In this document: one piece after another, positions 5,701 to 27,292 of the stretch
Numbering within the stretch: position 1 is the stretch's first letter
Layout of the letters: each line of letters begins with the position of its first letter
Source: Thermoplasmatota archaeon
GTDB lineage: Archaea > Thermoplasmatota > E2 > JACPAO01 > JAHFTW01
Direction: 5' to 3'
Assembly: GCA_028289805.1 (NCBI GenBank)
Contig: JANQNI010000073.1
Location: forward strand, 1-27,463
DNA length: 27,463 nt
Position numbers and translations under genes: made by a program
The notes under the pieces: generated by a model
What the model was told of the DNA's origin: nothing
What the model saw: only the letters and a program-made list of their open reading frames with translations
Database searches by the model: none

Positions 5701-7829
5701 AATTCAACGCGGGCCCTGGCAACGACGCCTTCGACGCCCGTACGACCGTCTCGGCCCCCTACAGCCAGAGTCTGAGCACCCAGTTTGCCACGCACGAACA
5801 GGGCGAGCCCCAGCCCTCCTGCGCAAAACTGTCCAATACCGTCTGGTACCGGTTCACGCCCGATGCCAGCGGCACGGCGACGGTTTCCACAAGCGGGTCG
5901 AACTTCAACACGGTCGTCGCCGCTTACACGGGTTCCGGTATCGGGTCCTTGAGCCAGGTCGCCTGCGACGACGACGGCGGTTCGGGCACGACCAGTTCGA
6001 CCTCGTTCCCCGTGACTGCGGGGATTTCGTACGCTATCCAGGTCGGTGGTTTCGAAAACGCCCTCGGAGTCCTCCAGGTGCAGGTGTCGTGCAGCCCCCA
6101 CGATTGCAACACAGTCAACCAGGCACCCGACCAACCCTCCTTGTCCTGCACGCCCGACCCGAGCCAGGCCGGACAGACCGTAACGTGTACCTTCAAGAGC
6201 ATGGATGCTGACTCCAGCGGAGTTTACTACACCGTGAATTGGGGCGACGGCTCCTCCACCCGCGTACCGTCCAGCGGTACGGTAACCCCCAACACGGACC
6301 GGAGCGCGGACCATTCCTACTCGCTGGCTGGCACATACACGGTTTCGGTGACCGCCACGGACAACGGTGTCCCTGCCCAGACCTCGGCGGCAGCTACCCA
6401 CACCCAGGACGTGCAACTGGTCGTCAACCAGGCTCCCGGTGCCCCCAGCCTGTCATGCAGCCCCGACCCCAGCCTCACAGGCCAGATGGTCTCGTGCAGC
6501 TTCAGCAGCATGGACACGGACTCCACGGGCGTTTACTACGTCGTGGACTGGGGGGATGGCTCAGCCACGGCGCGCGTCCCATCTAGCGGCACCGCGATTC
6601 CCGGCACCAGTCGCTCCGCCAGCCACACCTACTCCACGGCCGGCGGATACACCATCAGCGTATATGCCACGGACAACGGTTCTCCCGCTGAGTCCTCTGC
6701 CGCCACCACGGAGGCCCAGACTGTCAACCAGGCCCCCGTCCCCATGCCGTACTCCATCGGATTCGACACGGGCAGTGCCACGGATTGGACCCTATCGGGC
6801 CTCTGGCACCCCACCACCTGCGTCAAGAACAGCCCGTCCTACAGCCTCGGCTACAACAAGGCCGGCTGTCCCACGGACTTCAACACCGGCTCCCGCACAA
6901 TGGGCGACGCGGTCACGCCACCCATCGTCCTTGGTTCCGGATCCACGCCGCACCTGACCTGGAACAGCTGGCACGAAACAGAGACTGGCGGCGCGTACGA
7001 CAAGAAAATCGTCTCCGTCTCCACCAACGACGGCGCCACGTGGACCCAGGTCTGGCAGGAGACTGGCACCCAGTCCACCTGGAACGCCCGCGACGTGGAC
7101 CTCTCCGCGTACGCCGGGCAGACCATCCGCGTCCGCTTCCAGTTCGACAGCATCGACTCCGCAATCAACACCGGTGACGGCTGGTACGTGGACGATGTAT
7201 CTGTCGCGAACCCGAGCTTCACGGTCCCGGACCCACCCCGCAACGTCGCCGCGGCGGCCGGCCCGGGCGTCGGGCAGATTCGCGTCACCTGGGATGCGCC
7301 CAGCAGCGACGGCGGCAGCGCCATCACCGGCTACAAGGTCTATGTCTCGACTTCGTCCGGCGGGCCGTTCTCCTTGGAGGCCACCGTTGGTTCGTCCACG
7401 TACTCCTACACGGACTCGAACCTTGGCAACGGTGCCACGCGCTATTACCAACTCAGTGCCGTCAACGCCGCCGGCGAAGGTACGAGGAGCAACACGGCCA
7501 GCGCCACCACGTGGACGACGCCCAGTGCTCCACGCCAGTTGGTGGCCGAGGCCGGTTCCGCCCTCGGCGAGGTGGACATCTCCTGGATGCAACCCTCCAG
7601 CACCGGCGGGACGACGCTCTCGTACTACCGCCTGTATCGGGCGACGGACTCCAGTGGGCCGTTCACGCACATCGCAAGTCCGTCCGGAACCTCGTACACG
7701 GACTCGGGTCGCACCTTGGCTACAGCATACTACTATCGCGCCATCGCAGTGAACGTGGTCGGTGCCGGGCCGGTTTCCAACACGGACTGCTCCATGCCCT
7801 ATCCGGAGCCGCCCCTCGGCGCTTGCTAG
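2778..7829 (+). CDS. Large secreted multidomain zinc metalloprotease/adhesin (1683 aa): signal peptide, FN3/Ig-like x2, beta-gamma-crystallin x2, PPC-like, metzincin-like catalytic domain, PPC-like, PKD x2, jelly-roll domain, FN3 x2
   Basis: ATG 2778 is followed by a basic/hydrophobic signal-like N-terminus ending VVTA|DEL. HEAGHAMGAVH at 5460-5492; four NDxxSS motifs; two WGDG PKD signatures; terminal FN3 repeats (W..PSS.GG..I..Y.VY). The ORF-track start at 2532 overlaps the divergent gene and was not used. Confidence 0.88.
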   Translation: MAEEKIPRLLAFRDLRAGAAAAMFIFLAFSGVVTADELNGSNYIYGANDYVYIYSQDQSNEHAIGQKLKVVDHGFDVAKAHHIAPLMSRTSSTTSGNVCLEFGQPGSVLQSECRPVTDVPTSPGWLDFYFTPLVSVTPGGIYEYYVYYTGTCTTCVRGYYATTNEYLPGEGNNAVRLSKTSPTQAYIHPGQDSTFLFFIAHSPITVTDSATNIDHDSATLRGRNTDDADYYTTIYFEWGTTSSYGSTTDSVHCPESTTVACTRNISGLQSSTTYHYRICGNNGIGTQCGSNRMFTTDPAPNNPPTSMSPVSPSDGATGVSTGTSVSWAGGDDPDGVTYDVFIRPDGGSDRLACDGTGAKSCPSAELNLQPGTTYNWYVIARDGPGATTRGPSGSNYWSFTTSGCDASKVVLWQAANQSGGCRSIDADDGDFLGDTFDNGASLNDAVSSIQVPSGQTAILYEHSAFRGQLHIVAASDPNLDNDGFNDRASSLRIVPCAGDAPVVLFYDHNYEGGCLALHGDDSDFTDNVFSNGAGVNDAISSIWVRDGYQATLFQHNNYGGIAHTTLGNDKSLVGEGFNDHASSIRIELPSQAPANDLHARPAILGEVYAYHAEQSTVGATTQGGEQTACNSATLGASVWYKFTAVTSGTARITTWGSDFDTVLAAYAGTGLGSTQVDCNDDSAGTTQSELNFQCVAGQEYRIQVGGYNGASGNLVFHMTGCMDFRDDPFVATPRQPFCVSSDNEPRFEVVYAYANDAPDLYDQRVGRIREMIQEANGFLHQDASTRDGRTVDYRIGCTGGVIDVLKVAVDIPSNGDLLGALRNHPSGFNGPNAKYLVWFEKNRECGFGYAETDHAGSPSPGDLRMFSPGNPYATARSWAVVECDDSSHGVAVMMHEAGHAMGAVHDDAPDSDGAGHCTDNRSMLCDNDNPNTGGFACADLHYDCGFDSYFDPNPVPDEWLFDNWNQGHPYNGFLQFNAGPGNDAFDARTTVSAPYSQSLSTQFATHEQGEPQPSCAKLSNTVWYRFTPDASGTATVSTSGSNFNTVVAAYTGSGIGSLSQVACDDDGGSGTTSSTSFPVTAGISYAIQVGGFENALGVLQVQVSCSPHDCNTVNQAPDQPSLSCTPDPSQAGQTVTCTFKSMDADSSGVYYTVNWGDGSSTRVPSSGTVTPNTDRSADHSYSLAGTYTVSVTATDNGVPAQTSAAATHTQDVQLVVNQAPGAPSLSCSPDPSLTGQMVSCSFSSMDTDSTGVYYVVDWGDGSATARVPSSGTAIPGTSRSASHTYSTAGGYTISVYATDNGSPAESSAATTEAQTVNQAPVPMPYSIGFDTGSATDWTLSGLWHPTTCVKNSPSYSLGYNKAGCPTDFNTGSRTMGDAVTPPIVLGSGSTPHLTWNSWHETETGGAYDKKIVSVSTNDGATWTQVWQETGTQSTWNARDVDLSAYAGQTIRVRFQFDSIDSAINTGDGWYVDDVSVANPSFTVPDPPRNVAAAAGPGVGQIRVTWDAPSSDGGSAITGYKVYVSTSSGGPFSLEATVGSSTYSYTDSNLGNGATRYYQLSAVNAAGEGTRSNTASATTWTTPSAPRQLVAEAGSALGEVDISWMQPSSTGGTTLSYYRLYRATDSSGPFTHIASPSGTSYTDSGRTLATAYYYRAIAVNVVGAGPVSNTDCSMPYPEPPLGAC

Positions 7830-7895: not shown

Positions 7896-8017
7896 TTCGT
7901 CGAACCAGCCGTTGGATCCGTCCGACGCCGATGTCCATCCACTCGAACCGCCCCTCGCCTCATGGCAACGGATATATGTGGTCCCTTCTTGGGCGACCCT
8001 GGACCTGGGGTTTATAT

Positions 8018-8392
8018 ATGGTCTCCGTCGCTTCGGAATACGTCCCCTTGGCCATCTTGGGCGGGGTCTCCCTCCTGTTGGTCTTCGTCACGCTGCTGGG
8101 GAACCGCTTCATGGGTCCTCGCCGCGCCAGCGTCACCAAACTCACCAACTACGAGTGCGGTGAGAAGGCCACGCCTGGCGCCCGGGGCCCCATCGATGTC
8201 CAGTACTACATGTACATCCTGACGTTCCTCATCTTCGACGTCGAGGTGATGTTCCTGATCCCCTTCGCCATCAAGTTCCAGCACCTCGGTGTGGGCCCCA
8301 TCCTCGCCATCGCGTTCTTCGTGACGCTCATCCTGGTGGGCTACCTGTACGAGATCCGCAAGAAGCTCCTGAACTGGAGGTCCCTCGAATGA
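8018..8392 (+). CDS. nuoA: NADH-quinone oxidoreductase subunit A
   Basis: [11 protein letters not shown]..., [44 protein letters not shown] overlap with nuoB. Confidence 0.93.
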
Positions 8393-8976
8393 GCGACGAA
8401 CCGACCCCCGCCACCACCGTGGAGCAGGCGGACGCCGACATCCCGGAGTACGACCCCGAAGCGCACGCGGACGTGCCCAAGATCCCCATCGTCGTGGAGG
8501 AGCAGCAGGAGGGCATCGTCCTGACGGTCCTCTCCAAGGCCATCAACTGGGGCCGCAGCAACAGCCTCTGGCCCTTCGGCTTCGGCCTGGCCTGCTGCGC
8601 CATCGAGATGATCTCCACGGTGGCAACCCCCAACCACGACATGAGCCGCTTCGGCAGCGAGGTCATGCGCGCCTCGCCCCGGCAGTGCGACCTCATCATC
8701 GTCCCCGGCACCGTCACCAAGAAGATGGCGCCCCGCATCAAGAACCTCTGGGAGCAGATGGCGGAGCCGAAGTACGCCATCGCCATGGGTGCCTGCGCCA
8801 TCAACGGCGGCCCCTACCAGGACTCCTACTTCGTCGTCAAGGGCGTGGACAAGATCATCCCCGTCGACGTCTACATCCCCGGCTGCCCGCCGCGGCCCGA
8901 GGCGCTGCTGGACGGCCTCCAGAAGCTGCAGCAGAAGATCCGCGACCAGAACGACACCCTGGAGTTGGGCTTTTGA
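8389..8976 (+). CDS. nuoB: NADH-quinone oxidoreductase subunit B
   Basis: [47 protein letters not shown] (cluster N2 ligands). Confidence 0.97.
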
Positions 8977-9524
8977 GCGACGCTGAAGCCACGCTGGCAC
9001 CCACCGGCGACCACGCCGTCCTCGCCGAGGCGTGCCCCGACGAGGTCACCGGCTACGCCCAGACCGAGGACGGTCACGGCATCACCGAGGTCCGCCCAGA
9101 CGGCCTGTTCACCGTCGCCCGGCACGTGAAGAAGCTGGGCTACCGCATCCTGAGTTGCCTGTCCGCCTACGACACCAAGAAGATGGGCAGCGGCGTCTTC
9201 TACGCCTTCGTCAAGCCCGCCGCCTACCCCGAGGAGTTCGGGGACCTGCGGCTTCGCGTCCCCCTCACCTTCGAGGAAGAGGGCAAGGAGGTGCAGGTGC
9301 AGAGCCTCTGCGACGTCTTCCCGGCCGCCGGCTGGCACGAGCGCGAGATGTACGACATGTACGGCGTCCGGTTCGAGGGCAACCCCGACCCGCGCCGCAT
9401 CTTCCTGCCCGACGACTGGAAGGGCTTCCCCATGAGGTTGGACGACAAGCAGCCCGAGCAGTTCGTCGCCATGCGCGACGGCGAGGACGTGACCGTGCAG
9501 ACCCAAGAGGAGGGGTCGTGGTGA
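8973..9524 (+). CDS. nuoC: NADH-quinone oxidoreductase subunit C
   Basis: [43 protein letters not shown]. Start at TTG 8973, overlapping the nuoB stop (TTGA), with GGAG upstream. Confidence 0.92.
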
Positions 9525-9594
9525 GCGCAGCGAACCACGGCCTGGATTCCTGCATGAGCGGGAGCGAAATGCTGGAGGAGGGGTCCTGGTGAGC
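9507..9594 (+). repeat. Intercistronic element 1: 20-bp direct repeat (68-bp period) enclosing a 23-aa mini-ORF at 9521-9592
   Basis: GAGGAGGGGTC(G/C)TGGTGAGC at 9507-9526 and 9575-9594. Mini-[26 protein letters not shown] has GTGA overlaps with both nuoC and nuoD. Confidence 0.8.
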
Positions 9595-10797
9595 ATCGAC
9601 TACGCCGCCGCCGTCCCCCCCACCTACGACGCCCCCAGCGTCGTCGGGATGCACAAGGTCGACGACCGGCACCTGATGGAGCTCAACATGGGCCCCCAGC
9701 ACCCGTCGACCCACGGCGTGCTGCGCCTGAAGCTCCTGCTCGACGGCGAGATCGTCGAGAGCGTCGAGCCCATCATCGGCTACCTGCACCGCGGCAGCGA
9801 GAAGCTGGCCGAGGGCATGAACTGGACCAAGTTCATCCCGCTGACGGACCGCATGGACTACCTCTCGGCCATGAACAACAACCACGGCTACGTCCTGGCC
9901 GTGGAGGAACTCCTGGGCGGACCGGACGCGGGCGTCGTCTCCGAGCGCGGCGAACACCTGCGCGTCTTCGCCGCCGAGATGAGCCGCCTGGCCAGCCACC
10001 TCCTGTGGATGGGCACCTTCTTCATGGACCTGGGCGCCATCACGCCCATCTTCTACGCCCTGCGGGAGCGCGAGACGGTCCTCGGGTTCCTGGAGGAGCT
10101 GTGCGGCGCCCGGCTGACCTTCAACTACATGCGCATCGGGGGCGTCAAGTACGACCTGCCCGACGACCCCACGTACCTGCCCCGCGTGCGGGAGTTCATC
10201 AGCAACTTCCCGGCGCAGGTGGACGAGTTCGAGCGCCTGCTGAAGCAGAACGACATCATCGTCGCCCGCCTCAACGGCACCGGCCCCCTGAGCCGCCAGG
10301 ACGCCCTCGACTGGGGCGTCACCGGCCCCATGCTGCGCGCCACCGGCATCGCCCACGACCTGCGCAAGGTGTCCCCCTACAGCATCTACCCCAGCCTCGA
10401 CTTCGACGTGCCCACCACGACCCAGAGTGACTGCTACGGTCGCCTCATGGTCCGCTGGGCCGAGATGGTCCAGACCTGCCGCATCCTGGAGCAGGTCATC
10501 GACCGCCTCATGAACAAGCAGCTCGACGGCCTGCACCTCAACCCCGCCTACGCCGGCGGCAAGATGCTGCGCATCAAGGCCAAGGGCGAGGCCTACGCCC
10601 GCATCGAGCAGCCCAAGGGCGAGTACGGCGTCCACGTCATCGGCGACGGTGGCCTCAAGCCGGCCCGCGTGCACGTGCGCGCGCCCAGCTTCGCCAATTT
10701 GCAGGTCCTTCCCCTGATGGCGCGCGGCCAGAAAATCGCCGACTTGATCGCCAGCCTGGGAAGCATCGACATCGTCCTGGGGGACGTGGACCGCTAG
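9589..10797 (+). CDS. nuoD: NADH-quinone oxidoreductase subunit D
   Basis: LNMGPQHPSTHGVLRL, IGYLHRGSEK, DRMDYLS, RLASHLLW, GPMLRATG, ASLGSIDIVLGDVDR. Confidence 0.97.
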   Translation: MSIDYAAAVPPTYDAPSVVGMHKVDDRHLMELNMGPQHPSTHGVLRLKLLLDGEIVESVEPIIGYLHRGSEKLAEGMNWTKFIPLTDRMDYLSAMNNNHGYVLAVEELLGGPDAGVVSERGEHLRVFAAEMSRLASHLLWMGTFFMDLGAITPIFYALRERETVLGFLEELCGARLTFNYMRIGGVKYDLPDDPTYLPRVREFISNFPAQVDEFERLLKQNDIIVARLNGTGPLSRQDALDWGVTGPMLRATGIAHDLRKVSPYSIYPSLDFDVPTTTQSDCYGRLMVRWAEMVQTCRILEQVIDRLMNKQLDGLHLNPAYAGGKMLRIKAKGEAYARIEQPKGEYGVHVIGDGGLKPARVHVRAPSFANLQVLPLMARGQKIADLIASLGSIDIVLGDVDR

Positions 10798-10813
10798 GAG
10801 ACAGGAGGATTCC

Positions 10814-11866
10814 ATGGCTACACTCACCGACTTCTTCGACTCCGTCCTGCCCGGCACCCCCGGCTGGGTCGACAGCACCGTCGCCGCCCTCGTGGGCAGC
10901 CTCATCGTCTTCACGGTCGTGCTGTCCATCGGCGGCCTGTTCACCTTCGCCTTCCGGCGCATCTTCGCCCGCATGGGCCGCCGCCAGGGCCCCAACCGCG
11001 TCGGCCCCGCCGGCATCCTCCAGTTCGTCGCCGACGGCATCAAGCTGATCTCCAAGGAGGACATCCGGCCCGCCAAGGCCGACCGCCTCGCCTGGGGCCT
11101 CGCCGTCTACGTTGCCGTCACCTTCACGGTCCTCGCCTGGGCGCCCCTGCCCTGGAGCGACCAGATCTTCTTCAGCAACGTCGGCACCGGCGTCCTGTTC
11201 ATCCTCGCCGCCAGCGCCATCGCTCCCCTTGCGGAGATGATGGCCGGCTGGGGCAGCAACAACAAGTACAGCCTCTTCGGCGGCGTGCGCGCCGCGGCCC
11301 TGGACGTCAGCTACGAGATTCCGCTCATCTTCGCCGTGGCCAGCGTCATCCTGATGGTCGGCACCCTGGACACCCAGAGCATCGTCACCTCGCAGGCGGG
11401 CCTCTGGTTCATCGTGCCCCAGATCGTCGGCTTCGTCATCTTCTTCATCACCGGCCTGGCCAAGGCCGGCCTGGTCCCCACCGACCTGGCCGAGTCCGAG
11501 TCGGAACTGGTGGCCGGCTTCACGACGGAGTACTCCGGCATGCGCTTCGGGTTCTTCTTCGTCGTCATCTTCAGCAACGTCTTCTTCCTCGCCGCCCTGA
11601 TTACCATGCTGTACCTGGGCGGCTGGCAGGCACCCTTCGGCACGCTCGTCCCCGTCCTCCAGGGCTTCCTGGGGCCGTTCACGGGCGTCTTCTGGTTCCT
11701 GACCAAGGCGCTGCTGATGTGCTTCGTCATCTTCTGGATCTGGACCACGCTCCCGCGGGTCCGGGTGGACACCTACCTCAACGTCGCGTGGAAAGTCATG
11801 CTCCCCATCAGCATCCTGAACTTCGTTGGCACCGCCGTCCTCGTCAAGCTGGGGGTGGTGGGCTGA
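10814..11866 (+). CDS. nuoH: NADH-quinone oxidoreductase subunit H
   Basis: RRIFARMGRRQGPNRVGP.G.LQ..ADGIKL..KE, SYEIP, DLAESESELVAGFTTEYSG, PRVRVD. SD GGAGGA upstream. Confidence 0.96.
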   Translation: MATLTDFFDSVLPGTPGWVDSTVAALVGSLIVFTVVLSIGGLFTFAFRRIFARMGRRQGPNRVGPAGILQFVADGIKLISKEDIRPAKADRLAWGLAVYVAVTFTVLAWAPLPWSDQIFFSNVGTGVLFILAASAIAPLAEMMAGWGSNNKYSLFGGVRAAALDVSYEIPLIFAVASVILMVGTLDTQSIVTSQAGLWFIVPQIVGFVIFFITGLAKAGLVPTDLAESESELVAGFTTEYSGMRFGFFFVVIFSNVFFLAALITMLYLGGWQAPFGTLVPVLQGFLGPFTGVFWFLTKALLMCFVIFWIWTTLPRVRVDTYLNVAWKVMLPISILNFVGTAVLVKLGVVG

Positions 11867-12294
11867 TGAAGGTCCCCATCGCACCCATCCTGCAAGGCAT
11901 GGGCGTCACCCTCAGCAACTTCGTCAAGAAGCCGGTGACGGTCGCCTACCCCGAGCAGAAGCAACCGGTGGCCGACCGCTTCCGCGGCCGCATCTACCTC
12001 AAGCTGGAGACCTGCATCGGCTGCACCCTCTGCGCCCAGGCCTGCCCCAACGGCTCGTGCTACATGGTCGACTACGACCCCGGCTTCGAGACGCCGCAGA
12101 ACAAGCGCCAGAAATTCCCCGCCGTCGAGATCAGCAAGTGCATGTACTGCTCGCTGTGCGAGGAGGCGTGCCCCACCGACAGCATCCGCATGGGCAAGGA
12201 GTACGAGACCGGCGCCTACGTCCGGGACTTCGACTACAAGCCCGACCGCCTGAGCCAGAACGAGGCCGCACTCGGAAGGGGGCCGTACAAGTGA
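11866..12294 (+). CDS. nuoI: NADH-quinone oxidoreductase subunit I (2x[4Fe-4S])
   Basis: TVAYPEQK...RFRGRI, CIGCTLCAQACP and CMYCSLCEEACP. TGATG overlap with nuoH. Confidence 0.96.
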   Translation: MKVPIAPILQGMGVTLSNFVKKPVTVAYPEQKQPVADRFRGRIYLKLETCIGCTLCAQACPNGSCYMVDYDPGFETPQNKRQKFPAVEISKCMYCSLCEEACPTDSIRMGKEYETGAYVRDFDYKPDRLSQNEAALGRGPYK

Positions 12295-12554
12295 TCGGAG
12301 ACCAGATCGCCTTCGCCATCATCTCGTTGATGATCCTCGCCGGCGGCCTGTTCGCCGTCACCGCCAAGCGCACCTTCCACAGCGCCATGGGCCTCGGCCT
12401 CGCCCTCGTGGGCGTCGCCGCCGTGTTCATCCAGCTGGGCAGCCCCCTCGTGGGTGTCCTGCAGGTGCTCGTGTACGTGGGCGGCATCCTGACCCTGTTC
12501 GTCTTCGCCGTGATGTTCGTGGCCGGGGACGAGGAAGACGTGGAGGTGTTCTGA
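12291..12554 (+). CDS. nuoJ: NADH-quinone oxidoreductase subunit J, N-terminal part (J1)
   Basis: FHSAMGLGLAL...LQVLVYVGGILTLFVFAVM. GTG start overlapping the nuoI stop; 87 aa. Confidence 0.9.
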   Translation: MIGDQIAFAIISLMILAGGLFAVTAKRTFHSAMGLGLALVGVAAVFIQLGSPLVGVLQVLVYVGGILTLFVFAVMFVAGDEEDVEVF

Positions 12555-12637
12555 TGAGCGAAACGCGAAGCAGAACGCCTGAGCGAAGCGAGGGACCCTC
12601 CGGGGCTCCCCGAGCCCCGGACGGGGAGGTGTTCTGA
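12542..12637 (+). repeat. Intercistronic element 2: 13-bp direct repeat (83-bp period) enclosing a 27-aa mini-ORF at 12554-12637 and a 10-bp GC hairpin
   Basis: GGAGGTGTTCTGA at 12542-12554 and 12625-12637. Mini-ORF MSETRSRTPERSEGPSGAPRAPDGEVF*. Stem TCCGGGGCTC-CCC-GAGCCCCGGA at 12599-12621. Confidence 0.82.
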
Positions 12638-13006
12638 ATGGACAAGCGCATCGCGGCCGCCGTCGCCTTCGTCGCCTTCGGCACCATCGCCATCGCCGTC
12701 ACCCAGACCGCCCCCTGGTACGAGGAGGGCGTCGGCGGCGCCGAGACCTACGACGCCATCGTCCAGGACCTCTTCACCGACCACGTCATCGCCCTCGAGG
12801 TGCTCGGCGTCCTGCTGACGGCCGCCATGATCGGCGCCCTCGTCGTCGCCCGCCCCCTCACCGGCGGCGCCGACACCGCCAACTACCCCAAGGCGGACGA
12901 CGAGGACCTGGAGAAGGCCCGCGGCGTCAGCGACGTGGCCGCCACCCTGGGCGCGCCCGTGCCCGTCAGCCAACTGCTCCCGCCCGCGGAGGACGAGGAG
13001 GAATAG
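12638..13006 (+). CDS. nuoJ: NADH-quinone oxidoreductase subunit J, C-terminal part (J2)
   Basis: LFTDHVIALEVLGVLLTAAMIGALVVAR matches the NuoJ C-terminal LF..Y...FE...LLL.AMIGA motif. SD GGAGGTG upstream. Confidence 0.88.
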   Translation: MDKRIAAAVAFVAFGTIAIAVTQTAPWYEEGVGGAETYDAIVQDLFTDHVIALEVLGVLLTAAMIGALVVARPLTGGADTANYPKADDEDLEKARGVSDVAATLGAPVPVSQLLPPAEDEEE

Positions 13007-25089: not shown

Positions 25090-25638
25090 TCACTCGGGGA
25101 TGGGGACGTACCCAACGCCCAATCCGCACATGTAGTTGTCCGGCGCGTGGGCGGCCCCGGTCAGGAAGGCGATGTGGTGGTCGGCGGGGGCGTCGAACTC
25201 GTAGGCGTCCAGGGCGCCGAAGCCCTGGGGTTCCCCGGTGTCGAGCAGGATCTCGCCGCCCATGCCGACGAAGACGACGCGGGCGATGTAGATGCCGTGG
25301 CTGGCGCCGGCGTTGTAGTCGCCCCAGTAGACCTTCAGCTTGGTGATGAAGCGGTTGACCTCGACGGACGTCTGGTTGCCGCCGGTGCCCCCGTGCTGGA
25401 GGGTCTCCGTCTTCTCGCCCCACTGCTGTCCGTAGCTCACCGCGATGCCGTCGACGAGCCAGCCGTGGTTGGCGGTGAGGTGCGTGATGCGCGTGTTGGT
25501 CGGGATGGGGCCGAGCTTCTCGTTGAGCAGGTCGACGTCGTTGAACGGCGTGGCTCCCTTGCCCGCGTCGCGGCCGGCGGTTCCCTGGAAGAGGACGTTG
25601 AGGGGCAGGTATCCTTTGATGAGTTGTGTTCCTGGCAT
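25090..25638 (-). CDS. Jacalin-like (beta-prism I) lectin domain protein, no signal peptide
   Basis: PFND, RITHL..NHGWLVDGIAVSYG, HGGTGG, FITKLKVYWG, C-terminal I.FL.G...Y..GLG.GY pattern. ATG 25638 with SD GGGGAGG. Confidence 0.72.
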   Translation of the reverse strand: MPGTQLIKGYLPLNVLFQGTAGRDAGKGATPFNDVDLLNEKLGPIPTNTRITHLTANHGWLVDGIAVSYGQQWGEKTETLQHGGTGGNQTSVEVNRFITKLKVYWGDYNAGASHGIYIARVVFVGMGGEILLDTGEPQGFGALDAYEFDAPADHHIAFLTGAAHAPDNYMCGLGVGYVPIPE

Positions 25639-25738
25639 GGGCCTCCCCACGCCATTTGCATGCATCATTTCATTGTTGCGCAGGAGCTGGGCCCAAAAGA
25701 ATCGCAAGTAGATAGGATTATCGAAACCGCGCGGATTT

Positions 25739-27292
25739 CTAATTCAAGCGAATCCGGTGCGCCTCCCGCACGTGCTCCAGCCCCCGCAGCCCGTCCCGGG
25801 CCTGCCGGGGCACGCCGCCGTCGACGCGCACCACGGCCACCGCCGCCCCCGCGCCGTTGCGGGCGAGGCTGAGGTCGGCGACGTTGACGCCGGCGTCGGC
25901 CAGGATGCGCGTGATGCCGGCCAGGACGCCGGGCACGTCGTCGTGGCGCGTGAAGAGGAAGCGGCCGCGGGGGCGGAACTCCACGTCGTAGTGGTCGATG
26001 CGCGTCACGCGGGCGCCGTAGTGGGGCGTGTACGTCCCCTCCAACCGGATGCCGCCCCCGTCGCCGCGCACCTCGACGCAGACGTAGTCCGCCTGGTCGG
26101 GCGTGCCCCGGCCCGCCACCGTCCAGCCCTTCTCGTCGGCCATGCCGGGGGCGTTGATGGCGTTGACCGGCTCGTCGGTGCCGGCGCGCAGGGCGCCCAC
26201 GAGGGCGTGGATGCGCAGGGCGTCGGCGTCCAGGTCGGGGCCCGCCGACACCACGACCTCGGAGAGGGGGCCGTCGACGGCCTGGGCGCCGAAGGCGGCC
26301 AACTGCTCGGCGAGGCCCACCCAGGGGCGCATCGGTTCGGGGACGCGCACCTGGGCGTTGACGGCGTTGCCCGCGTCGCCGGAGTCCAGGAAATCGCACA
26401 CGCGCTCGACGGCCTGCACGGCCGCCTTGACCTGCGCCTCGTGCGTGGAGGCGCCCAGGTGGGGAGCGGCGACGACGCGGGGATGCTTGGCGAGCGACCA
26501 GTCGGTGGGGGGTTCCTCGCTCCACACGTCGACGCCCGCCGCCGCGACGCGGCCCGACGTCAGTCCCTCCAGCAGGGCGGGCTCGTCGAGCAGGCCGCCG
26601 CGCGCGGCGTTGACCACGATGCAGCCCTCCTTCAGCATCGCCACGCGCTCGGCGTCCAGCAGGTCGCGGGTCTTGGACGTCAGGGGGGTGTGGAACGTCA
26701 CCACGTCGGCGCGGCGGAACCCGTCCTCCAACTCCACCTTCTCGACGCCGAAGCCGGCGGCCGCCTCCGCCGTCACGAAGGGGTCGAAGCCGAGGCACGT
26801 CATCTCGAAGGCCTGCGCGCGCCGGGCCATCATGCGCCCGATGCGGCCCAACCCCACGATGAAGAGGGTCTTGCCGGCCAGCTCGACGCCCTTGAGGCGC
26901 TTGCGGGCCCAGTCCCCCTCCTTCATGGCCGCGTCGGCCTCCGGGACGCGGCGCGCGGCGGCGAGCATCAGCGCCCACGCCTGCTCCGCCGCCGACGTGA
27001 TGTTGCCGGTGGGGCTGTTGAAGACGGCGACGCCGGCGGCGGTGGCCGCCTCCAGGTCGACGTTGTCCACGCCCACGCCCGCCCGGCCCACCGCCCGCAG
27101 CCGCGGCGCCGCAGCCATCTCGTCGGGCCCGAGGCGGGTGCCGCTGCGGACGATCCACGCCTCCGCCTGCGCCACGGCGGCGGCGCGCGCGTCCCCGTCC
27201 AGGCCCGTGACGTCCACGGGGTCGTGACCGCGTTCCCGCAGCAGGGCGTATCCTTCTTCGGCGAGGGGGTCGGAGACGACGACGCGGGCCAT
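25739..27292 (-). CDS. serA: D-3-phosphoglycerate dehydrogenase (long form with C-terminal ACT domain)
   Basis: IVRSGT, GRAGVGVDNVD, NSPTGN..SAAE, GLGRIG, HTPLT, VNAARGG, PHLGASTHEAQ, HDDVPGVLAGIT. ATG 27292. Confidence 0.95.
   Translation of the reverse strand: MARVVVSDPLAEEGYALLRERGHDPVDVTGLDGDARAAAVAQAEAWIVRSGTRLGPDEMAAAPRLRAVGRAGVGVDNVDLEAATAAGVAVFNSPTGNITSAAEQAWALMLAAARRVPEADAAMKEGDWARKRLKGVELAGKTLFIVGLGRIGRMMARRAQAFEMTCLGFDPFVTAEAAAGFGVEKVELEDGFRRADVVTFHTPLTSKTRDLLDAERVAMLKEGCIVVNAARGGLLDEPALLEGLTSGRVAAAGVDVWSEEPPTDWSLAKHPRVVAAPHLGASTHEAQVKAAVQAVERVCDFLDSGDAGNAVNAQVRVPEPMRPWVGLAEQLAAFGAQAVDGPLSEVVVSAGPDLDADALRIHALVGALRAGTDEPVNAINAPGMADEKGWTVAGRGTPDQADYVCVEVRGDGGGIRLEGTYTPHYGARVTRIDHYDVEFRPRGRFLFTRHDDVPGVLAGITRILADAGVNVADLSLARNGAGAAVAVVRVDGGVPRQARDGLRGLEHVREAHRIRLN

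Follow-up and report, generated by a model that had tools for sequence, protein, structure and literature searches.

The window analysed here, a stretch of 27,463 nucleotides forming one contig of a Thermoplasmatota archaeon (JANQNI010000073.1), contains a complex I operon in which the genes for the two halves of NuoJ, nuoJ1 and nuoJ2, are held apart by 83 bases that repeat the end of nuoJ1. Sequence comparison with relatives shows that these 83 bases are a recent, lineage-specific insertion with target duplication, in a nuoJ1/nuoJ2 junction that was once tightly coupled. Moreover, the counts and alignments reported below show that the insert belongs to a clade-wide modular family in which caps and bases are short and conserved, while the stems vary and are made from the local gene end. 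The overall picture that we consider probable is that of a modular hairpin element similar to the interspersed repetitive units of mycobacteria (MIRUs) and to repetitive extragenic palindromic (REP) sequences, whose arms would have arisen by template switching nucleated at a mini-hairpin, and which would be tolerated since the junction is rebuilt. We infer the details of this mechanism with lower confidence than the picture as a whole.

The genome that holds the window (G000, in which the window is contig C351) is a metagenome-assembled genome (MAG) of 1.73 Mb in 379 contigs, with 70.6% G+C and a completeness of ∼80%. Its family was represented by 24 genomes, all of them MAGs that are 70–94% complete; G001 and G002 are congeners of G000, and G009 belongs to a different genus. 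Genes of G000 were called with a rough codon-based gene finder, which gave a coding fraction of 87%. All features of the window described below lie on the forward (+) strand.

An insertion with target duplication at the nuoJ1/nuoJ2 junction

The nuoJ1 reading frame (12291–12554) encodes the N-terminal half of NuoJ, ending in ...EDVEVF* (Pfam Oxidored_q3, positions 2–65 of 146, E = 7.8e-18), and nuoJ2 (12638–13006) encodes the C-terminal half (positions 77–145 of 146). The 13-mer GGAGGTGTTCTGA is found at 12542–12554 and again at 12625–12637, with a period of 83 and no third copy in the assembly. Its first copy (A) comprises the Shine-Dalgarno sequence GGAGGTG, the last nuoJ1 codon and the TGA stop, and the repeat lengthens to 18 nt (from 12537) if one mismatch is allowed; the second copy provides an intact Shine-Dalgarno sequence for nuoJ2 together with the stop codon of a small open reading frame (ORF). 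This 27-codon mini-ORF (12554–12637) runs from the ATG at 12554, which shares bases with the nuoJ1 stop (TGATG), to the TGA at 12635–12637, which directly precedes the nuoJ2 ATG at 12638. Its product, MSETRSRTPERSEGPSGAPRAPDGEVF, terminates in EVF* as NuoJ1 does and has no Pfam match. We refer to such a frame, which would relay ribosomes from one gene to the next, as a relay ORF.

The direct repeats bracket 70 new bases, which hold the 27-codon ORF, two GCGAAGC mini-hairpins and a 10-bp hairpin, in the order A, loop 1, A′, cap, hairpin, A. Loop 1 of the first hairpin (12555–12570) contains the mini-hairpin GCGAAACGC (12558–12566), whose 3′ end is overlapped by GCGAAGC at 12565–12571, and the variant motif TGAGCGAAACGCGA occupies the start of the insert (12555–12568). 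A′ (12571–12579, CAGAACGCC) repeats the nuoJ1 end GGTGTTCTG (12545–12553) in inverted form, with one G-T wobble. It is followed by the family cap motif TGAGCGAAGCGA (12580–12591), a GCGAAGC mini-hairpin (12583–12589) set between GA and GA, and by the perfect GC-rich 10-bp hairpin TCCGGGGCTC-CCC-GAGCCCCGGA (12599–12621), which is essentially unique within the G000 genome. The duplicated junction, the coupled mini-ORF, the cap motif with its variant and the 10-bp hairpin had all been described in an earlier reading made from the letters alone (the sequence-only reading), and each was found again where that reading had placed it. The inverted copy A′ was absent from it.

The RNA of 12535–12645 is predicted to fold with −54.5 kcal/mol (z = −4.85, 0 of 200 shuffles as good), and the same region folded as DNA gave z = −4.23 versus shuffles. 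In the predicted fold, 12544–12553 is paired with 12571–12580. The first of the two Shine-Dalgarno copies thus lies within hairpin 1, as does the nuoJ1 stop, and the second, before nuoJ2, is left unpaired.

A duplicated 13-mer is not rare by itself in this genome, in which 310 pairs of exact 13-mer repeats lie 20–150 nt apart versus ∼20 expected under a first-order Markov model; the decisive evidence is comparative. In the congener G001 the site is empty: a single junction, GGGAGGTGCTTTCATGAAC (GGAGGTGCTTTCATGA), is present and the nuoJ1 stop overlaps the nuoJ2 start, which provides the empty-site allele that the sequence-only reading had proposed to look for in relatives. Similar overlapping xTGA junctions occur at nuoJ1/nuoJ2 in most genomes of the family. 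The other congener, G002, carries at this junction a 17-nt repeat, GGAGGTGCTTTCGTGAA, around an insert of ∼62 nt that contains the near-cap GAGCGCAaCGA, an inverted copy of G002's own nuoJ1 end and two hairpins. In G009, an insert of ∼100 nt at the same place also begins with an inverted copy of that genome's own nuoJ1 end. Pairwise alignment of the G000, G002 and G009 inserts gave no significant similarity (z = 1.0, 2.0 and 0.8). The three are either independent or very diverged, and one ancestral insert that G001 has since lost would be equally compatible with this result. The junction sequence peculiar to G000 is present in both A copies and in the A′ arm. Because all three carry the derived sequence, we favour an insertion that postdates the change in the G000 junction. 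As a side observation, NuoJ is split in the genus of G000 and in others, whereas the NuoJ1 frame extends over 216–304 codons in several genera of the family, as a single fused NuoJ gene.

The last 13 nt of the insert, and its final EVF*, are those of nuoJ1. It might accordingly be taken for a local tandem duplication of the nuoJ1 3′ end that has since decayed, or for an assembly artefact; both were rejected as extremely improbable. Aligned to the 70 bases upstream, the 70 new bases did no better than chance (score −10 versus a null of −10.5 ± 4.4, z = 0.11), in agreement with the sequence-only reading, which had not taken the insert for a decayed duplication. As for the assembly, the filled site was recovered without any difference in independently assembled Logan contigs, drawn from two runs of a single coral-metagenome study: a contig of 3881 nt covering 9300–12758 in run X1, the probable source sample, and one of 187 nt covering 12482–12668 in run X2. 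No contig of these two runs skips the insert.

A modular family anchored on gene 3′ ends

By their Pfam matches, the nuo genes of the window (NuoC 8973–9524, NuoD 9589–10797, NuoI, the two NuoJ halves and NuoK) form a complex I operon. According to the gene-finder calls, its junctions overlap or measure at most 16 nt, with the exceptions of nuoJ1/nuoJ2 (83 nt) and nuoC/nuoD (64 nt). The latter harbours a sister element (9507–9594) with a 20-nt direct repeat, GAGGAGGGGTC[G/C]TGGTGAGC, at 9507–9526 and 9575–9594. Two caps, GAGCGCAGCGA (9523–9533) and GAGCGGGAGCGA (9556–9567), are present, and its A′ ACCACGGCC (9534–9542) is an inverted copy of the nuoC end GGTCGTGGT (9514–9522). A GTGA-coupled mini-ORF of 23 codons leads from the GTG at 9521 to the TGA at 9592. 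Both congeners have an empty GTGA overlap at this junction. A third operon insert of G000 (C289:3657–3740) separates the alpha gene (POR_N/PFOR_II) of a 2-oxoacid:ferredoxin oxidoreductase from the beta gene (TPP_enzyme_C); it shows the 17-nt repeat GGAGGTGCACGCATGAG with a period of 65 and a 22-codon relay ORF, and the site is empty in G001 and G002.

The sequence-only reading had supposed that translational coupling is preserved by such elements, and the predicted frames agree with this. A relay ORF is open in every operon insert checked, namely the three of G000, those of G002 and G009 and both units of a tandem array in G012; these frames begin on the upstream stop and finish on or beside the downstream start. 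For a relay ORF to be open, the period must be 2 modulo 3 and the frame free of stop codons, for which we estimate a chance of roughly 0.2 per insert; of 14 loci that are not junctions, five have such a period, as many as chance would give. The G012 array (G012:C6 ∼25610–25770) has a 71-bp period, each unit consisting of GGAGGTGAAGAGTGA, a cap, an inverted copy and a hairpin. Its successive GTGA-coupled mini-ORFs each end in GGEE* like the upstream gene, forming a relay chain that resembles the variable-number tandem repeats of MIRU loci (MIRU-VNTR). In other genera as well, the same cap is found on variable stems, following tRNAs and in tandem arrays. Unrelated to the cap family is a nearly perfect tandem repeat, three units of 55 bp, at the start of another contig of G000 (C15:1–181); its first 30 nt reappear at the end of contig C197.

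A repeat family that targets gene junctions had been proposed in the sequence-only reading, with a scan for its core GAGCG-N(1–2)-AGCGA as the way to find it. The family exists: its core GAGCG-N-AGCGA, the cap GAGCGNAGCGA, has 46 copies in G000 versus 0–20 for twelve permuted controls, and a perfect flanking stem of at least 5 bp accompanies 15 of the copies versus essentially none in the controls. Relaxed matches fall outside genes in 41 of 54 cases, in a genome that is largely coding. The expected location was only partly right, however, as the family is anchored on gene 3′ ends generally, including those of terminal genes and tRNAs. In all 24 genomes of the family the cap exceeds its reversed control (e.g. 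39 versus 4, 16 versus 0 and 15 versus 0). Across the phylum its enrichment is patchy (e.g. 48 versus 3 and 16 versus 0) and some families have none.

The family is strongly oriented with respect to transcription. Twenty-nine caps are co-oriented with the upstream gene and four are not. A second module, GGAGCGAG-[stem-loop]-CTGGCGAC, is co-oriented in 15 of 15 copies, 11 of which stand 15–38 nt past the stop codon. Likewise, GNA and CTTG loops on hairpins with stems of at least 6 bp downstream of genes are sense in 34 cases versus antisense in 3. These counts show a strand bias, just as the predicted frames above show open relay ORFs.

Cap-bearing stems differ in sequence at every locus, and their arms can be traced to the gene that precedes them. 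In at least 10 loci, the T before the cap motif and the GA of the motif form the TGA stop of the upstream gene, the 5′ arm being the last codons of the gene and the 3′ arm an inverted copy of them. A direct repeat of the last 12 nt (at most one mismatch) follows 15–220 nt downstream at 17 of 1428 gene ends, versus 2 in the upstream control. These repeats are 12–22 nt long, and in all 17 the fold places a mini-loop and the inverted copy after the gene end and its stop, then one to four more hairpins and lastly the repeat. At the gene end on C320 the site is empty in both congeners. At the one on C149, A′ fits each genome's own divergent C-terminus, A and A′ differing together between G000 and G001. 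Gene starts searched for equivalent repeats gave only the background level, junction cases aside. We noted in addition, at G000:C308 ∼6519–6601, a perfect 12-nt repeat of the first codons of a gene (ATGCTGAAGGTC) placed 71 nt upstream of its start, which may be a start-side insert of another kind.

Hairpin arrays also stand directly at the 3′ ends of tRNA-Lys(TTT) (G000:C122 ∼1990–2110) and tRNA-Gly(CCC) (G000:C371 ∼7920–8030). Their first stem consists of the acceptor 3′ strand and an inverted copy of it, and in the tRNA-Lys array a repeat of the tRNA end stands before the native flank. Both arrays are restricted to G000, the congeners having plain T-rich tails. Some stems are found at more than one locus: the stem CGAGAAAGGCC/GGTCTTTCTCG is present both in the region of the tRNA-Gly array (G000:C371:7923–7957) and in the G001 orthologue of the C149 locus (G001:C4 ∼34150–34200), although the two loci are unrelated, and it bears a resemblance to the C149 gene end. 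Moreover, 20 nt of the nuoJ insert match a hairpin at the C216 gene end (AGAACGCCTGAGCGAAGCGA) in G000. Finished hairpins thus seem able to disperse to new sites, and the common stem and the 20-nt match together suggest that the copying of ready-made hairpins also contributes to the family.

The second module has 15 strict copies in G000, and 17 if its 3′ motif is slightly relaxed (for example C189:1331–1360, C216:672–701 and C362:4182–4209), with GNA, CTTG or the cap as loops. At least six different stems keep the pairing, e.g. CCGCGC/GCGCGG, TCGGCC/GGCCGA, TCGGACC/GGTCCGA and CCCGC/GCGGG. A tandem G-A/A-G motif beside G-C pairs is common to the cap and the second module; a reading of these motifs as K-turns was rejected for want of a 3-nt bulge. 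A further module, GACGCC-[hairpin]-GGCCGAGG, is present in several arrays and also in G018. Comparison of all intergenic regions of G000 against each other by BLAST returned only short module matches, with neither a full-length consensus nor shared termini. Stop-straddling hairpins with stems of at least 7 bp show a small general excess (4.2% versus 2.9–3.0%), and the signal resides in long and in cap-bearing hairpins. Finally, no Rfam covariance model came close to threshold, whether at the insert or in 13 family loci, apart from matches to tRNAs, and a known RNA family was accordingly discarded as an explanation.

These data bear on a second explanation, in which the insert is a locally selected regulatory RNA, and neither a mobile element nor a mutational by-product. 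It would act as an attenuator-like device with alternative A/A′ and A′/A pairing, or as a processing or stability site, and would set the NuoJ1:NuoJ2 ratio or segmental mRNA stability. In its favour, three lineages have inserts at the same junction, A′ is able to pair with either A copy, the fold is strongly non-random, the orientation relative to transcription is strict, and the C149 gene ends of G000 and G001 differ jointly in A and A′. However, the same architecture follows unrelated genes and also tRNAs, for which pairing of the acceptor strand has no obvious benefit. Neither the closest congener nor most of the family has the junction insert, the three junction inserts have no common sequence, and perfect duplications of 13–17 nt indicate a one-step mutational origin. 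We regard a locally selected regulatory RNA as very unlikely.

Comparison with known repeats and mobile elements

MIRUs are elements of 40–100 bp with filled and empty sites, flanking repeats and ORFs coupled to their neighbours (Supply et al. 1997, reviewed in PMC3184786 and PMC12548453). Their motifs A and B are TGACGAGGAGCGGCGCAGATGGCA and GGCGCCGGTGACGATGCAGAGCGTAGCGA, respectively (PMC6286618). The archaeal elements are alike in being intercistronic in operons, in the orientation of the genes, 40–100 bp long and present at filled and empty sites between direct repeats, with some tandem arrays; in both, a small ORF is coupled to the stop and start on either side, its translation being a prediction in the present case. 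Moreover, the two have an identical 11-nt core, since the end of motif B, GAGCGTAGCGA (PMC6286618), corresponds to the archaeal cap GAGCGNAGCGA, and they share a loosely similar GGAGCG-[GC hairpin]-GGYGAC module. The core that the sequence-only reading had given for MIRUs was thus correct.

The differences are substantial. The host is an archaeon of the Thermoplasmatota, whereas MIRUs have been described as confined to mycobacteria. A MIRU is a conserved unit of 46–101 bp with motifs A and B in ∼40–50 copies, whereas the archaeal copies share modules only, on stems that repeat the local gene end in inverted form. The archaeal flanking repeats measure 12–22 nt as compared with ∼4 nt (tetranucleotides) for MIRUs, and the archaeal family sits at stop codons and at the 3′ ends of RNA genes, whereas MIRUs are described as inserting at start codons. 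Homology over the whole unit was rejected, summed local alignment scores being 290 versus 263 ± 16 for shuffled MIRU, which is not significant. The MIRU likeness proposed in the sequence-only reading therefore holds for the core and does not extend to the unit as a whole: the archaeal element works like a MIRU and is not a member of the MIRU family.

A second likeness is to REP sequences and to the bacterial interspersed mosaic elements (BIMEs) that contain them. Like these, the archaeal elements are extragenic GC-rich hairpins downstream of genes or in operons, co-oriented and mosaic, many of them at most 15 nt from a stop codon, a distance within which REPs have been reported to stall ribosomes (PMC12306157). 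By analogy, a role as mRNA stabilisers is likely. On the other hand, REP stems are conserved imperfect palindromes, have a GTAG or CGTC tail and are linked to REP-associated tyrosine transposases (RAYTs), whereas the archaeal stems vary at every locus, with conservation in the cap at the apex and in GGAGCGAG/CTGGCGAC at the base, and searches of the clade yielded no Y1 transposase. Miniature inverted-repeat transposable elements (MITEs) differ as well, for the archaeal copies have no terminal inverted repeats in common and their target duplication is of 12–22 nt and not of a fixed length.

A classical non-autonomous transposon, either a MITE or a REP/REPIN mobilised by a RAYT or other transposase, would nevertheless produce an ordinary target-site duplication from a staggered cut, and would agree with the filled and empty sites flanked by direct repeats, with conserved modules common to loci and genera, with one hairpin of identical stems at two unrelated loci and with tandem arrays among some members. 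We searched for an enzyme that could mobilise the family. The Y1 transposase domain PF01797 was found neither in G000 nor in any of the 24 family genomes, which are 71–94% complete and all carry the cap. In contrast, the sister family f4 possesses Y1 and is nearly cap-free, with 0–4 caps per genome and none in 11 of 16 genomes. Reverse transcriptase (RVT_1) occurs in just one of the 24 genomes. RAYT/IS200-type mobilisation and a retro-element origin were rejected on these grounds. Furthermore, a transposon is at odds with the lack of a full-length consensus and of conserved terminal inverted repeats, with the variable repeat length and with an arm beside the target that is complementary to that particular target. 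A transposon in this sense is unlikely in our opinion. The non-autonomous mobile family of the sequence-only reading thus stands as a family, and its transposition by a dedicated enzyme is no more than a hypothesis. Campbell-type integration of a small circle through arm homology, prompted by the 20-nt match to C216, was also rejected as a general rule: the 13–18-nt repeat has target-specific sequence, which the C216 arm lacks.

Parallels to the arms are found among mutational processes. Template switching generates reverse-complement copies and perfect stems in one event (PMC8794818). In the four-point model (PMC8794818, PMC10710096), a return upstream of the departure point yields A-A′-A, and multi-base 'compensatory' changes are permitted. 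Such mutations differ from the archaeal inserts in that they bring in no foreign sequence and are not known with a conserved cap, with recurrence at gene ends or with the formation of a family. The cap, for its part, has a known physical counterpart. Mini-hairpins of the type d(GCGNAGC)/d(GCGNNAGC) melt at 76.5°C, resist nucleases, pause polymerases and are steadier as DNA than as RNA (PMC13037366). The cap core is an exact match to these, including the NN variant GCGGGAGC at 9558–9565 in the nuoC/nuoD element. They are known, however, from phage and plasmid origins and from engineered oligonucleotides, and not as the apex of a genome-wide repeat family (PMC13037366).

Proposed origin, persistence and significance

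The mini-hairpin-nucleated template switching that we favour would be an event of copy-choice during replication or repair. An ultra-stable, polymerase-pausing mini-hairpin on the coding strand would cause the nascent strand to fold back and to copy the gene end backwards, giving A′. The strand would then turn again and rejoin its template upstream of the departure point, so that A is duplicated. Caps and extra hairpins would come from short donor tracts or from earlier copies, and whole hairpins would also be copied to new sites. Selection would retain only those inserts that rebuild the junction. For nuoJ2, the duplication would restore a full ribosome-binding site and start, and the length of the insert would keep open the 27-codon ORF that hands ribosomes from nuoJ1 to nuoJ2. 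Once transcribed, by analogy with stop-proximal REPs, the hairpins may be barriers to 3′–5′ decay. A possible brake on nuoJ1 termination or on mini-ORF initiation is also suggested by the modelled fold, because the pairing in hairpin 1 would hide both the nuoJ1 stop and the first Shine-Dalgarno copy.

Several points weigh against this proposal. Its main weakness is that no template is identifiable for the loops and for hairpin 3 of the fold: A′ (12571–12579) is a local reverse complement, whereas a search of 600 nt to each side gave no template for loop 1, the cap or hairpin 3. As a pure template switch adds no foreign sequence, the parts that lack a local template call for extra steps or for a donor copy. 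Intermediate states were not encountered: every part is already there in both filled congener sites. The 20-nt C216 match and the stem held by two loci suggest, as said, that ready-made hairpins are copied too. An undetected enzyme is conceivable, given the completeness of the MAGs. Finally, G-T mismatches exceed A-C mismatches weakly (42 versus 30), so that selection at the RNA level is no more than a possibility.

A bolder generalisation, which we put forward as doubtful, is that MIRU-type repeats are not transposons at all and represent the footprint of enzyme-independent copy-choice in GC-rich prokaryotes, in which fold-back at an ultra-stable GA-GCGNAGC-GA mini-hairpin of the coding strand, at gene 3′ ends, writes first an inverted and then a direct copy and so makes hairpins de novo, in 3′-UTRs or between cistrons. 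If this were true, the presence of the same cap in Mycobacterium MIRUs and in Thermoplasmatota would reflect one physico-chemical mechanism in two domains of life.

To our knowledge, the origin and spread of MIRUs have been an open question since 1997, and these repeats have been described as restricted to mycobacteria. An archaeal clade with the MIRU design and the same 11-base core, in which each element repeats its own target once inverted and once in direct orientation, makes the question of origin testable. The inserts also indicate that essential coupled operons, those of complex I and of the 2-oxoacid oxidoreductase, can absorb such elements, with the ribosome-binding site, stop and start rebuilt and a relay ORF predicted to stay open. 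For genome annotation, such inserts yield spurious small ORFs and apparent gene splits, and they may provide variable-number markers for the strain typing of uncultured archaea.

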